Shown here in pieces: positions 29,300 to 33,588 of a stretch of 64,000 bases of DNA; the stretch's first letter is position 1; every line of letters begins with the position of its first letter. The notes beneath the pieces were generated by a model. That model saw nothing but the letters and a program-made list of their open reading frames with translations. It was not told where the DNA came from and ran no database searches. Location: NCBI GenBank assembly GCA_964409035.1, contig CAYPBQ010000003.1, forward strand, positions 41,530 through 105,529, written 5' to 3'. The DNA is from an uncultured Candidatus Saccharibacteria bacterium (GTDB lineage: Bacteria; Patescibacteriota; Minisyncoccia; Phycocordibacterales; UBA12088). Made by a program: the position numbers and the translations under genes.

Positions 29300-30094
29300 T
29301 TACTTGTTTGATTTTTTAATCGAGGTTTCTTTTATTCTCTTTTCAGCCATTTTTATATATTTATCCTCCTTTTCAATACCAATCCAATCTCGCCCAAGAC
29401 TTTTTGCCACTGAAGCAGTAGTACCGCTTCCCAAAAATGGGTCAAGAATTACATCATTAGGATTTGAAGAAGCGATTATAGTCCTCCTTACTAACTCTTC
29501 AGGTTTCTGTGTGGGGTGGGAAGCACGTCCATCTTTTCCTCTGATCCTTTCCTTACCTTGAACTAAAGGTAGTGACCATACGTCACGCATTTGCTTCAGA
29601 CTGCCATCAAGTTGCTTTTCTGGGTTAATTTTTTTGAGTTCGTCATAGTTGAATACCCACTTTTTACCTTTAACAGCCCAGACGACAAACTCTGTAGAGT
29701 GAGTAAATACTCTTCGGGTCATATTTGGCATGGCGTTAGTTTTTTGCCAAGTAATTATGTTGAGTATATTGAAATTGAGATTCTTCAGGCTCATTATTAT
29801 CTCACCAATGTTGTGATATGTACCACAAATATAAATTGAGCCGTTATTCTTTAATACACGGTGACTAGCTTTAATCCATTCTTGATTAAAAATAAGGAAG
29901 TCAGATGGGGTCATTTGATCCCAAGCTTCATTTACCATAAACCAATCTCCACCAGTTTTGTTTCCTTTCCATTTCAGACCATTGCCAGAAAGGTTGTATG
30001 GAGGATCGGCAAAAATCATATCGACACTTTCCTTGTCGATTTTCGTGTTCATTATTGCGGTGCAATCACCTTTATAAATTAAATTCTTTTTCAT
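29300..30094 (-). CDS. DNA methyltransferase, beta-class (N4-cytosine or N6-adenine), R-M system M1 subunit
   Basis: Motif IV 'IFADPPYN' near N-terminus and motif I 'VILDPFLGSGTTA' near C-terminus (beta-class order). Confidence 0.85.
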   Translation of the reverse strand: MKKNLIYKGDCTAIMNTKIDKESVDMIFADPPYNLSGNGLKWKGNKTGGDWFMVNEAWDQMTPSDFLIFNQEWIKASHRVLKNNGSIYICGTYHNIGEIIMSLKNLNFNILNIITWQKTNAMPNMTRRVFTHSTEFVVWAVKGKKWVFNYDELKKINPEKQLDGSLKQMRDVWSLPLVQGKERIRGKDGRASHPTQKPEELVRRTIIASSNPNDVILDPFLGSGTTASVAKSLGRDWIGIEKEDKYIKMAEKRIKETSIKKSNK

Positions 30095-30097
30095 AAA

Positions 30098-31948
30098 TTA
30101 TGCAGTAACGGCAGTCTTCCAAGTACTGATTACTGAAGGTATTTCATCTAACCATTTGCCTGCATTAGATACTGTGGAAGATTTTGTAACAATCTGCTCG
30201 TATAATTCTGACAACTGGTTGTGATTAAGAAAACCTCCTCGTTCCTTAATCGCAACAAGGGCTTTGAGTAATTCAATAAACTGACCAATCGAAATAGGGA
30301 TAATTTTTTGAGTTTTCCCCTCGTACTCATACTTAACCGATGTCCAGAAAGTGTTCACTGTATCTCTGTGAAGTTTTGGGGCAACGAATAGACAGTAGGA
30401 GGTCTTGTCGGCATTCTTATTTTCAAAATCCCTCAAGTGTCTCATTACCGGCTGTCCCTCGTTGTACCACTGGTCACGTCCAGTAAGCATGGTGACCTCG
30501 CAAATGGCATTATGCGATTCGTAATAGCATTCGATGTCAGGAGTATTTGCCGGTGCAGTAAATGTTGGTTCGTTGTCGTCACCAACTGGGTAATTTGGTT
30601 TTATCTGCAATGCGTCATTCAAAGCATTTAGTCCGAGTGAGATGTATTTTTCTAATGCTATAGGCTTATCTTCAGCTTCAAATATGTTTTCTAGGGCGGT
30701 GATATACTCTTTTATTTTCTCGACATCTTGCGAAGCATTATGATTTTCTTTGTCCTGCAAACTTCTACGATAGATACGAAGCTCTTCAACATAAGATTTA
30801 AGCTCGGTTTCAGACAAGGTTTGATATGTTAGTCGATGTGCTTGGCCTAAACCAAGTTTATTCTCGTACGCACTTATTTCCTCTATGAGCTTTTCAATAA
30901 TCTCGACAAACTTTTCTTTTGTCTCCCACGGTAGTTTTGGTTGGGTAATATCCGATACATAATTCAAGTACTCTTCCTTTGAAGTGAACACTTTTGCTTC
31001 AGAGCTGTCGTGTTGTAAAAGATTAGTTATCTCGACAGACCTTCGAGGTTCGAGGTCTATGTAGTAACCGTTGCCTCTGATATGAAAATACCTAGTTAAT
31101 CTAAAGTAACGTATAGCATTGTCGCCGTAATCATCAAGATTGCTAATCAATTTATTGACTTCCGTAGTATCATCAGTTCCAAGAAAAGCTATAGCAAAAT
31201 CACGACTGTAATTCTTCAGTATATCTTTCTTCTCTTGTTTACTTTTTCCATTCAACAAGTCTCGTAGAGCAATAATTTTATCCGCATAGGAACCGATGTC
31301 CCTGAAATGCACTAACGAAGGTACGAATAAATCAAACTCGTCCTTACTCAATCCTTTAGGCTCATTGCCACGCTCAACTTCTTTTCTATTTACCTGATCA
31401 ATCAAATGTAATGCACCGATAAATGGCTTAATGTTATAAGTTCCATCGTCTGAAAAATCATTACTGTCTGGGTTTGGAATCTGCCACTTAATAAAAAATC
31501 TGAAATAAACGTCTCCAATATCTATTTCGTTTTTTAGAAAAGCATTACCGAGGTCAGTTATTTTTATTTGACCAGAGGTTTGTTTTGCAACAGCTAACCC
31601 CATTTTAGTTAGCGGTGCTACTGATGTTCTTCCTCTTAAACCTTCATCACCACGAAGAACAGCAGAGCGACTTTTCATGTGTTCAAAAATCTCTTGAGCT
31701 TGCTCAAAAGTCATCTTATCTCCGGAAGTTTCGTAATATCCCAACAGTGCTTCTGATAGTCCTGTTGGTTGGTATAGTCGATTTTGAATTAGTAAAGTTT
31801 GGAACTTTACTTGCCCTGCTTCATCAAAAGATTCTCCGTCCATTTCTTTTAGGACATGGAGAAAAGGCAGTATTCTTTCGGGATTTCTTACAGTTGTTGA
31901 AAGTGACCAAGTTTTTTTCATAGCTAATAATTCTTTGTTACCTTGCAA
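30098..31948 (-). CDS. Putative restriction endonuclease (616 aa) of a two-methyltransferase (Type IIS-like) R-M system
   Basis: Sandwiched 3 nt/25 nt from two MTase genes in one operon; no motif recognised by eye, so the call rests on context. Confidence 0.4.
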   Translation of the reverse strand: MQGNKELLAMKKTWSLSTTVRNPERILPFLHVLKEMDGESFDEAGQVKFQTLLIQNRLYQPTGLSEALLGYYETSGDKMTFEQAQEIFEHMKSRSAVLRGDEGLRGRTSVAPLTKMGLAVAKQTSGQIKITDLGNAFLKNEIDIGDVYFRFFIKWQIPNPDSNDFSDDGTYNIKPFIGALHLIDQVNRKEVERGNEPKGLSKDEFDLFVPSLVHFRDIGSYADKIIALRDLLNGKSKQEKKDILKNYSRDFAIAFLGTDDTTEVNKLISNLDDYGDNAIRYFRLTRYFHIRGNGYYIDLEPRRSVEITNLLQHDSSEAKVFTSKEEYLNYVSDITQPKLPWETKEKFVEIIEKLIEEISAYENKLGLGQAHRLTYQTLSETELKSYVEELRIYRRSLQDKENHNASQDVEKIKEYITALENIFEAEDKPIALEKYISLGLNALNDALQIKPNYPVGDDNEPTFTAPANTPDIECYYESHNAICEVTMLTGRDQWYNEGQPVMRHLRDFENKNADKTSYCLFVAPKLHRDTVNTFWTSVKYEYEGKTQKIIPISIGQFIELLKALVAIKERGGFLNHNQLSELYEQIVTKSSTVSNAGKWLDEIPSVISTWKTAVTA

Positions 31949-33588
31949 TAAAAGACCCTCTCTGAATTACCAGAGGAATCGCTTTTGCCGGCAGTAAAAC
32001 CCTTATAATCTCGTTCGAATATCTCAACCTTGCCTCTCAATTTCAGGGTTTCGATTATGTACTTATCAGATATTGTAGCATTTGATCGGCCATTTTTCTT
32101 CTCTGCCGTATTGTTGTAGGAAAGGAGGATATGTTTAGTCTTTGCGTTAAGTATAAGGTCTCTAAAGGCCTCTGGAGCACTCTTTAGGCAGTATTTGCTC
32201 TTAATATGCGATCTATCTACCATCTTCTTTGCTACACCCAAAACAGAAGGCTTTTTCCAAGTAATTATATTTTCTAGAAGGTGGTAAGAATCTCCATATT
32301 GACGTGAGTTGTAAGGGGGGTCGATGTATAAAACATCACACTCAATTTTTCTAATGAGACTATTTGCGTCTTCTTTGTAAATCTCGTTTCTCTGGTTGTT
32401 TTGAGTGTTTATGTCAGGAACAAATAACTTTAATTCATTTGTTGTGTCGAGTGTTTTTCTGTATGCCTCATAATGGCCAACAGTATTCGCTACTTTATCT
32501 ATCGCATAAAGCAGTGAGGTTAAGAGTATTTGTTTTTCTTGTTCAGTTATATTCAGAGAATCAATTTCTTCTCTAATTGCTCCTATTTTCAGTGCATTCT
32601 TTCGGGTAAAGTATGTTCCTCCAAAGTTCTTTGAAACGTAATTATCTTTCCGTGGCTCAACATCATTTAGATAATCTATCAAGCTGTTCATTCGATCAAC
32701 ACTATATTCCTTTGTTCCTAACCAACACTGTAGACTTGTATAACTACTATCTAAAATATCATTAGAGATTAGTCTTACGTCAGGTCTATTGAAATGATTC
32801 CCAACAACCCCAGTTCCACTGAATATGTCACAAAAAGATTCATAGTTGGGACACTTATCAGCAACAATGTCTGAAATGAATCCAAGTAATTTTGATTTGT
32901 TTCCGAGAAAACGCCTGCTTTGAATCTGGAGTTTTCTCTTTGAAGCCTCACTTACTTTTGCTAGTGGGAAAAAATTTCCTCCGGTTACCAAATCAAATCT
33001 GCTTCTTACAACTCCAGTAAGTTTTCCTCTTATCTCTAAATCTCTAACAAAAATAGGTTGATAATCTCTGTTGGCCGGCTGAAGTCTATAGGAATTTCTT
33101 TCTCGAAAAATCCTCTTGAGTGTAGCCTTACCATCAATTACAGCTACTCCAATTTCACCATTGTCTACAGTTGGTTGTTCACGAATAACAACAATATCAC
33201 CATTAAAAATGTCAGCTTCCTGCATACTATGCCCTTGAACTCTTAAGGCGTAGTGATTCTGGCTTCTCGTAATGAACTCTCTTGGAACTTTTATGAGTTC
33301 AGGGTTTTCAAGAACTTCGATAGGTTCACCCGCAGAAATAAACCCAAGAAGAGGTATTTCAATAAAATTTTTATCATCAGAATTGATTTCAATAGATCGA
33401 GCAAAATTATCTTCCTTCTTAAGGAATCCTTTTTCAACCAAAGCTTGGATATGCTGATGGATAGTGGAGACTGCCGATAATTTTAATCCGGTTTTTATTT
33501 CTTCCAGAGTAGGAGGGTAATCTTTTTTCTCTATGAATCTCTCTATGAAATTTAATACTTGTTTTTGTTTTTTTGTTATAAGTTTCAT
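31924..33588 (-). CDS. Fusion protein: LexA-like repressor (wHTH + S24 autopeptidase) fused to Dam-like D12-class N6-adenine DNA methyltransferase
   Basis: N-term 'KKQKQVLNFIERFIEKKDYPPTLEEIKTGLKLSAVSTIHQHIQALVEKGFL' (LexA DNA-binding domain), cleavage site 'ISAGEP', 'GHSM' Ser, 'ATLKRI' Lys; C-term MTase motifs 'RFLGNKSKLL', motif I 'DIFSGTGVVG', motif IV 'LYIDPPYN'. Confidence 0.8.
   Translation of the reverse strand: MKLITKKQKQVLNFIERFIEKKDYPPTLEEIKTGLKLSAVSTIHQHIQALVEKGFLKKEDNFARSIEINSDDKNFIEIPLLGFISAGEPIEVLENPELIKVPREFITRSQNHYALRVQGHSMQEADIFNGDIVVIREQPTVDNGEIGVAVIDGKATLKRIFRERNSYRLQPANRDYQPIFVRDLEIRGKLTGVVRSRFDLVTGGNFFPLAKVSEASKRKLQIQSRRFLGNKSKLLGFISDIVADKCPNYESFCDIFSGTGVVGNHFNRPDVRLISNDILDSSYTSLQCWLGTKEYSVDRMNSLIDYLNDVEPRKDNYVSKNFGGTYFTRKNALKIGAIREEIDSLNITEQEKQILLTSLLYAIDKVANTVGHYEAYRKTLDTTNELKLFVPDINTQNNQRNEIYKEDANSLIRKIECDVLYIDPPYNSRQYGDSYHLLENIITWKKPSVLGVAKKMVDRSHIKSKYCLKSAPEAFRDLILNAKTKHILLSYNNTAEKKNGRSNATISDKYIIETLKLRGKVEIFERDYKGFTAGKSDSSGNSERVFYCKVTKNY

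Follow-up and report, generated by a model that had tools for sequence, protein, structure and literature searches.

A complete LexA repressor fused to a methyltransferase in a Type IIS restriction-modification operon of Candidatus Saccharibacteria

What controls a restriction-modification (R-M) operon whose first gene encodes a complete SOS repressor joined to a DNA methyltransferase (MTase)? The question is raised by a locus on a contig of an uncultured Candidatus Saccharibacteria bacterium (CAYPBQ010000003.1), of which we analysed a stretch of 64 kb, here called the window; all coordinates are positions in it. Three minus-strand open reading frames (ORFs) fill 29300-33588, where an earlier note on this DNA had placed LexA-M2, a middle gene and M1. 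LexA-M2 (31924-33588, minus strand) is a LexA::D12 MTase fusion of 554 amino acids (aa), the middle gene (30098-31921, minus strand) encodes an AlwI/BstNBI-family Type IIS endonuclease of 607 aa, and M1 (29300-30094, minus strand) is a β-class N6/N4 DNA MTase of 264 aa (PF01555 N6_N4_Mtase, E 2.1e-60). Matches from Pfam, NCBIfam, PADLOC and the PDB, covering all three proteins, bear out the earlier description of an R-M operon with an α-class and a β-class MTase around one endonuclease; the domain E-values, which run from 1e-34 to 1e-89, mean that the gene identities are not a matter of chance. We assign the operon, which is read from one promoter, to the Type IIS R-M systems of the AlwI/MlyI/PleI/BstNBI family. 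We consider it probable, though by no means secure, that this operon is under the control of an autoregulated, RecA-cleavable LexA fused to one of its MTases.

The LexA moiety occupies residues 1-196 of LexA-M2 (33001-33588, minus strand) and comprises a winged helix-turn-helix (HTH), an Ala86-Gly87 cleavage site (codons at 33328-33333), Ser121 and Lys158. Pfam assigns LexA_DNA_bind to residues 1-64 of the fusion, Peptidase_S24 to residues 79-190 and MethyltransfD12 to residues 227-487. The TIGR00498 lexA equivalog model scores 179.6 bits over residues 1-196, against a cut-off of 110.95, and the PDB LexA structure 3k2z matches residues 4-195 (E 1.7e-35). The same Pfam scan of LexA-M2 contained no C-protein or Xre-type HTH, the only extras being two unrelated matches below cut-off. 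With canonical LexA (TIGR00498) the moiety has in common the domain order, the Ala-Gly site, the Ser/Lys dyad and an autoregulatory-type operator in its own promoter. It differs in not being a free-standing LexA of about 200 aa, since it carries an MTase of 335 aa, and in lying on mobile R-M cassettes, falling in a separate sequence cluster and coexisting with a resident LexA. LexA had been mentioned before as a part of M2, and a complete LexA is indeed present, but the fusion, which is the unusual part, had been left unpursued.

Among 17 fusions with 61-80% identity to the protein of the window, A86, G87, S121 (the nucleophile) and K158 (the general base) do not vary, and the cleavage residues are also kept in LexA moieties attached to other classes of MTase, at about 50% mutual identity. 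Invariance across such divergent LexA moieties indicates selection on self-cleavage. The three-domain LexA/S24/D12 architecture recurs in 80 clusters at 90% identity, too many for the fusion to be an artefact of assembly. Every LexA-D12 locus that we opened has the same three-gene cassette (LexA-D12 MTase, AlwI-type nuclease, second MTase) between unrelated flanks, among them islands with a serine recombinase, a phage-like region and defence islands (GmrSD, UvrD-like, AbiU2). In the literature that we searched we found no description of a LexA-MTase fusion or of a LexA-controlled R-M system, and in a review of R-M regulation from 2013 LexA comes up only in connection with toxin-antitoxin systems (PMC3874152).

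Upstream of the fusion gene, a consensus scan predicts a minus-strand promoter at 33619-33648 (9/12 matches), made up of a -35 box CTAACA (33648-33643), a spacer of 18 nucleotides (nt) and a -10 box TATACT (33624-33619). The spacer is, exactly, a direct repeat that we regard as the putative operator of the LexA moiety: TTTTCGGTAGATTTTCGG, which may be written TTTTCGGTA-GA-TTTTCGG (TTCG-N7-TTCG; 33625-33642, minus strand). The upstream flanks diverge between loci around a near-invariant block, TTTTCG(G/T)(T/A)A-(G/A)A-TTTTCGG-TATACT, and the -10 box and the spacing are conserved in all related loci. An exact TTTTCG-N5-TTTTCG occurs once, at the same position, in 15/15 loci of the LexA type and in 0/2 loci of a RadC type described below. 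A metagenome scan with a pattern consisting of the operator and the -10 box returned 52 loci, and in 45 of them a LexA-type ORF starts 0-41 nt downstream, with the LexA N-terminus M-x-x-(P/T)-(I/L)-T-K-R-Q-K-E. Six of the remaining seven meet a contig end or have no callable ORF of at least 60 aa. The seventh (L180), where the match lies within a gene on a phage-like contig and the readable downstream sequence has no LexA ORF, we treated as an outlier. A scan of genome contigs with a 14-base pattern, TTTTCGNNNNATTTTCGG, gave mostly chance matches in unrelated phyla among those listed, and one useful locus from Saccharibacteria (L053).

Two further elements of this promoter region were examined. 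The first is a perfect palindrome with 17-bp arms, GGTATACTTACTCAAGT aac ACTTGAGTAAGTATACC, which starts at the -10 box and stops 1 nt short of the ATG (33590-33626). It is specific to this lineage, in which it replaces a conserved leader of about 40 nt. We rejected it as the LexA operator, as it is absent from all other cassette loci, whereas the direct repeat is universal. Palindromes of the form GTATACT..AGTATAC occur twice in the 64 kb, where 0.01 are expected, namely here and in the promoter of the resident lexA. The palindrome also mirrors the -10 box to the opposite strand, towards a divergent terS-like gene. The second element is a 9-mer, TTATCCACA, equal to the E. coli DnaA-box consensus and located at 33656-33664 (plus strand), 13 nt upstream of the operator. 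In a survey of the 60 nt upstream of the operator in loci L143-L194, 38 of 44 distinct R-M-linked lexA promoters had it at a distance of 12-15 nt from the operator, in one or the other orientation and with no more than one mismatch (shuffled sequences, 1.9%). The window holds three exact copies (33656, 19272 and 55967) where 0.6 are expected; all are intergenic and one is at the resident lexA promoter. Two housekeeping lexA genes divergent from uvrB in other Patescibacteria (L141, L199) do not have the 9-mer in their promoters. A role as -35 box was rejected, given its two orientations and its distance of 12-15 nt from an operator that itself sits at the edge of the -35 box; it might bind DnaA or another regulator, or else be a promoter element.

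The next gene of the operon encodes the middle protein, for which the earlier note had proposed a new restriction endonuclease (REase) family or something other than a nuclease. The profile and structure-prediction searches that it called for place the protein instead in the known AlwI/MlyI/PleI/Nt.BstNBI endonuclease family. It matches Pfam RE_AlwI (PF09491) with 299.6 bits against a cut-off of 23.1, over profile positions 1-441 of 441 (E 5.5e-89), and the PADLOC REase_II model PDLC03393 over its full length (E 4e-151). By sequence it also matches N.BspD6I (E 2.7e-31, about 22% identity) and the BspD6I small subunit (E 3e-09), and homologues that are 84% identical already bear the NCBI name 'AlwI family type II restriction endonuclease'. 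An AlphaFold2 model built on 22 database homologues (pLDDT 82.7) was compared with known structures by Foldseek; it resembles N.BspD6I (2ewf/6qnz; TM 0.72-0.75, E 7e-27), and its C-terminal domain matches the BspD6I small subunit (2p14; TMt 0.85) and, more weakly, PD-(D/E)XK resolvases. In the model, as in N.BspD6I, a site-recognition region at the N-terminus is followed by a PD-(D/E)XK-like cleavage domain at the C-terminus.

Residues E424, D462 and E475-V-T477 align with E418, D456 and E469-V-T of N.BspD6I, an enzyme inactivated by E418A and D456A (PMC6261011), and are invariant in seven cassette nucleases and the 22 database homologues. The motif is a non-canonical one of the PD-(D/E)XK type, P-D462 ... 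E475-V-T477, and it had been overlooked by eye because a threonine replaces the lysine. That no canonical PD-(D/E)XK, HNH or GIY-YIG signature is visible by eye and that no NCBIfam model matches the protein are the two points in favour of a new endonuclease family, or of a non-nuclease such as a DNA-binding or ATPase accessory. Set against the full-length family matches, the N.BspD6I-like sequence and predicted fold, the conserved catalytic residues and the naming of the homologues, they leave that alternative a negligible probability. The middle protein is an ordinary endonuclease of a known family, and the unusual feature of the operon is the LexA fusion.

Its N-terminus differs from the one first proposed. 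The longest ORF, at 30098-31948, has a TTG start and encodes 616 aa; however, homologues begin at a conserved MKK(T/I)WSLSTTVRNP, which corresponds to an ATG at 31921 and a protein of 607 aa, and the N.BspD6I alignment begins at this same N-terminus. The reported 25-nt overlap with M2 is thus an ORF-extension artefact, due to the longest ORF having been taken: a gap of 2 nt separates the M2 stop codon from the endonuclease gene, and one of 3 nt, given correctly before, separates the latter from M1. We also considered an N-terminal polymorphism behind the 581-aa and 616-aa endonuclease calls in sister contigs, and discarded it as gene-caller noise, the DNA being identical.

The enzyme thus has with AlwI, MlyI, PleI and Nt.BstNBI (the BspD6I large subunit) the PF09491 family, the N.BspD6I-like predicted fold and the E...PD...E-V-T residues in common, as well as adenine-type MTases alongside, which are found in other asymmetric-site systems too. 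In contrast to BspD6I/BstNBI, which have a small-subunit gene, no such gene was found with the endonuclease here: a tblastn search of the C-terminal domain against the whole window, for a small-subunit paralogue of about 186 aa, matched only the endonuclease gene itself, and none of the related cassettes that we opened has a small-subunit ORF. MlyI and AlwI are homodimerising cutters (PMC3017599), and since the small-subunit gene was not found, the endonuclease would be either a homodimerising cutter like these or a nickase. The cassette nucleases form two subgroups with 27-28% mutual identity (L009/L013/L143, and the window with L016/L005/L006/L011), across which the accompanying LexA-D12 MTases remain about 65% identical; these are either two nuclease lineages for one specificity, as with N.BstNBI, MlyI and PleI, or the result of a swapped nuclease gene.

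The two MTases belong to different classes. M1 has the β-class motif order, DPPY (residue 30) before FLGSGTT (residue 220). It matches the MTase domain of CcrM (PDB 6pbd; E 9e-65, M1 residues 6-256), PADLOC MTase_II (E 2.7e-86) and, in the PDB, H. pylori DpnA (5hfj; E 2.1e-31). It is without the C-terminal DNA-binding domain of CcrM, and it scores 267 on the NCBIfam CcrM model, whose cut-off is 830. Of the residues by which CcrM contacts GANTC, Arg44, Pro45 and Arg129 are replaced by Lys, Gly and Val in a HMMER alignment of M1; because these key residues differ, they give no GANTC assignment for M1. The D12 (α-class) adenine MTase moiety of LexA-M2 covers aa 220-554 (31924-32931, minus strand; PF02086, E 4.8e-34), with motif I (FCDIFSGTG) followed by motif IV (DPPY). 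It matches the PADLOC MTase_II model PDLC03373 over aa 218-551 (E 7.6e-115) and, from the source annotation and the lengths of the PADLOC models (646 and 722 aa), resembles the halves of double MTases of the StsI/FokI type.

Type IIS systems usually have two MTases, one per strand (PMC4081073), and the earlier remark that a two-MTase layout is typical of them agrees with this arrangement. Here, the two enzymes, which may methylate adenine or N4-cytosine, presumably each protect one strand of an asymmetric site. The set-up differs from those of MlyI, with one GASTC MTase, and AlwI, with one fused double MTase (PMC4081073), in having two separate MTases of different classes. A D12-class and an N6_N4-class MTase next to a single endonuclease are also found in DpnII-type cassettes. 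DpnII itself recognises the palindrome GATC, and its nuclease is of another family; because the nuclease here is Type IIS, the two MTases more probably split the two strands. As for the site, the window and the other loci with the cassette show no shortage of GAGTC (observed/expected ratio, O/E, 1.02) or GGATC (O/E 1.16). They have somewhat fewer copies of GGATG/CATCC than expected, with an O/E of 0.72 for the window and 0.79 for the other loci; in the pooled data this word ranks fifth-lowest among 512 (z -3.8), a hint of the recognition site that is too weak for a call. This word is among the lowest pentanucleotides in the window, where GATC is the most under-represented tetranucleotide (316 observed, 485 expected, O/E 0.65).

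How, then, would such an operon be regulated? The nuclease/methylase balance of R-M systems is known to be set by few kinds of controller: C proteins, self-repressing MTases and antisense RNAs. Among the self-repressing MTases, M.SsoII, M.Ecl18kI, M.EcoRII and M.ScrFI repress their own R-M promoter. LexA-M2 resembles the SsoII-type MTases and the C proteins in its N-terminal DNA-binding region on an MTase, its operator over the R-M promoter and the self-limited MTase level to be expected from these. It differs from them in that the DNA-binding part is a full LexA (winged HTH and S24) rather than a small HTH and is not a C-protein homologue, and in that the operator is a direct repeat of SOS-box type. 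To our knowledge, no described R-M controller has the residues for RecA-dependent inactivation that LexA-M2 has, and we know of no member of the AlwI/MlyI/PleI/Nt.BstNBI group with a LexA fused to its MTase.

We hypothesize that LexA-M2 dimerises through its S24 domain and binds TTCG-N7-TTCG in the spacer of its own promoter. Bound there, it would hold the expression of MTases and endonuclease at a low, self-limited level, in the manner of C proteins and SsoII-type MTases. RecA filaments on damaged DNA would trigger self-cleavage at Ala86-Gly87, which would free the DNA-binding domain and de-repress the operon. Since the LexA module carries its operator with it, the host would have to supply nothing but RecA. 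One possible pay-off would be a larger supply of methylase when the system's own nuclease, or repair synthesis, leaves unprotected DNA; unbalanced R-M activity causes SOS induction and death (PMC3874152). Another would be an anticipatory defence when damage signals phage activity, and a third, should the cleaved MTase be unstable, a suicide switch.

An alternative is that the LexA moiety is a constitutive autorepressor or dimerisation handle, a substitute for a C protein and not a damage sensor, whose cleavage residues persist by recent descent or for some other reason. The position of the operator suits simple autorepression, there are precedents for an MTase that acts on its own promoter as a repressor, by way of an N-terminal DNA-binding region (SsoII, EcoRII, ScrFI; references in PMC3874152), and the joint induction of nuclease and methylase is without obvious benefit. 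A plain HTH, however, would be enough for autorepression, and the Ala-Gly, Ser and Lys residues are invariant not only across fusions of 61-80% identity but also on other MTase classes, so that we think this alternative unlikely, if the most serious of those considered here.

The suicide switch may also be taken as the principal function: damage would lead to hyper-restriction, the S24-MTase fragment being degraded or inactive, so that protection of one strand falls while the nuclease rises and the damaged or infected cell dies by its own hand, as in abortive infection. The cleaved N-terminal fragment would end ...ISA or ...IAA, an end which we take to resemble the C-terminal degron exposed on cleaved E. 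coli LexA, and the cassettes occur in defence islands near AbiU2, GmrSD and CBASS-like genes; the SOS induction and death that follow unbalanced R-M (PMC3874152) fit as well. We nevertheless judge this outcome improbable, as it rests on an assumed instability of the S24-MTase fragment, M1 and already methylated DNA would buffer a short-term loss, and de-repression would also yield more of the fusion protein.

It could also be asked whether LexA-M2 is the main SOS repressor of the organism, with the MTase as an epigenetic add-on and a secondary link to the nuclease, and hence not a defence system at all. The LexA moiety is complete, and its operator is of the type found at housekeeping lexA promoters of other Patescibacteria. 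The window, however, encodes a separate, resident lexA of 190 aa (19317-19889, plus strand; TIGR00498 111.9 bits, cut-off 110.95), with its own operator and with a Y-family polymerase (IMS) gene downstream (20171-21430), so that the host has a LexA besides the fusion. The operon is carried by a low-GC island that has an integrase at a tRNA gene; in every locus examined, the D12 fusion comes with an AlwI-type nuclease and a second MTase; and the R-M-linked LexAs form a cluster of their own. Taken together, these observations make a role as main SOS repressor very improbable.

The resident LexA is 34% identical to the housekeeping LexA P0205 and 26% identical to the LexA-M2 moiety. Its operator is of Cheo type, GAACGAACGTTC at 19291-19302, lies within a palindrome with 12-bp arms and is the sole GAAC-N4-GTTC in the 64 kb. 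From 19272, the promoter reads TTATCCACA-gtt-GTATACTGAACG-aa-CGTTCAGTATAC-taacttc-ATG; its -10 box comes to within 6 nt of the ATG, so that the mRNA may lack a leader. Two LexA-type proteins with different operators are thus encoded 14 kb apart in the window. As judged from their sequences, the two LexA-operator pairs look orthogonal in this genome and would share only the RecA signal.

We stress that several points count against the model of a damage-responsive LexA controller. We infer DNA binding, repression, RecA-dependent cleavage and the outcome of induction from sequence, and the conserved Ala-Gly, Ser and Lys are needed for cleavage yet insufficient for it. Since there is one promoter, induction would raise nuclease and methylases together, and the benefit of this is not evident. 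The model also leaves unexplained what becomes of the S24-MTase fragment once it is cleaved off and whether it stays active, as well as the conserved TTATCCACA and the lineage-specific leader palindrome. On the side of the nuclease, the best PADLOC model is labelled 'nicking endonuclease', and the small subunit is not encoded nearby. Finally, the recognition helix of the resident LexA is a different one and its operator is of Cheo type, so that in this genome the fusion would be tied to the host SOS regulon only at the level of the RecA signal.

Where might the fused LexA have come from? Two housekeeping lexA genes of Patescibacteria that are divergent from uvrB (L141 and L199) have a promoter of the same design, consisting of TTGACA, an 18-nt spacer with TTCG-N7-TTCG and a -10 box, and their recognition helix, LSSLATVHEHIQAL, is close to the LSAVSTVHQHI.AL of the fused LexAs. 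A passage of one published study says that the LexA of Patescibacteria uses a direct-repeat motif (PMC7739468). The simplest history suggested by these sequences is that a lexA gene was captured along with its own autoregulated promoter. In an identity-based neighbour-joining tree, the R-M-linked LexAs (48-88% mutual identity) stand apart from the uvrB-linked housekeeping LexAs (40-50%).

The same module of promoter, operator and LexA is found fused to a Dam-like D12 MTase (L144) and to N6_N4 MTases of several lineages (L053, L146, L154, L157, L165), among which is a type with an SPPY motif (L168, L188). As a separate lexA gene, it occurs with its stop codon overlapping the start of an Eco57I-like MTase gene (L138, L139, L161), to which it is possibly translationally coupled, and databases list a LexA plus C5-MTase architecture (P0170). 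The LexA module is thus associated with at least four MTase classes, and with neighbouring nucleases of five families (AlwI-, MutH-, PvuII-, TaqI- and BglII-like). The closest free-standing relatives of the fused LexA are not housekeeping proteins: they are those overlapping the Eco57I-like MTase genes, which encode 612-632 aa (L138 4001-6473, L139 4001-6492 and L161). Of these lexA copies, the ones in L138 and L161 carry the same operator, and the one in L139 lies in a defence island, beside SMODS/SLATT (CBASS-like) and GmrSD genes.

A variant of the cassette (D12 MTase, AlwI-type nuclease, N6_N4 MTase) has RadC (PF20582 and PF04002) fused to the MTase (L011 6001-10420, and L012). It stands directly downstream of recA and is without the SOS-type operator; the architecture search listed dozens of RadC-MTase clusters. 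In the Patescibacteria contig L011, at least six tandem ATCCGTA heptamers precede recA (4480-4545) and may be a regulatory repeat. Carriage of the cassette by phages was considered and rejected: two scans of viral contigs found four MTase-only relatives and no LexA fusion, the phage-like context of L016 and L017 notwithstanding.

The nuclease of this operon is of a known family, and the interest of the locus lies in its proposed LexA-type controller. If the model is true, a self-cleaving SOS repressor on an MTase would be a new type of controller that senses DNA damage directly, and it would provide a concrete, testable link between SOS and restriction in a large, little-studied group of bacteria with tiny genomes. 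Tests would be easy, as the parts are small: 46 bp of promoter, a domain of 200 aa and three point mutants. In practical terms the yield would be modest, possibly a new Type IIS or nicking specificity. As the LexA arrangement recurs on many restriction systems of Patescibacteria, it may tie phage defence to the SOS signal. With more doubt than confidence, we extend the proposal further: a portable LexA-plus-operator module may have replaced C proteins as a general controller of Type II R-M systems across Patescibacteria, needing only the host RecA. The levels of MTase and nuclease would then answer to DNA damage, including that caused by the system's own nuclease or by phage, either as a self-correcting methylation feedback or as a hyper-restriction or suicide switch, and the DnaA-box-like element would add an input from replication.

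The island that carries the operon is a low-GC stretch at about 29.1-37.8 kb (29100-37807, about 8.6 kb), with a GC content of 0.35-0.39 compared with about 0.43. It includes a large serine recombinase (integrase) gene (36197-37747, plus strand; Pfam Resolvase and Recombinase, phrog_95 integrase E 4.9e-76), which overlaps a tRNA-Asn gene identified by ARAGORN (37735-37807, minus strand), the terS-like HTH gene divergent from the operon (33690-34076; phrog_4102, E 2.9e-20) and several unknown genes. The island is probably a small integrative element, with the tRNA-Asn gene as its probable integration site; in appearance it resembles such an element or a phage satellite. Elsewhere in the window, the gene of a SET-domain protein of 141 aa (24942-25367; PF00856, E 1.7e-25) directly precedes that of a uracil-DNA glycosylase (25372-26034).

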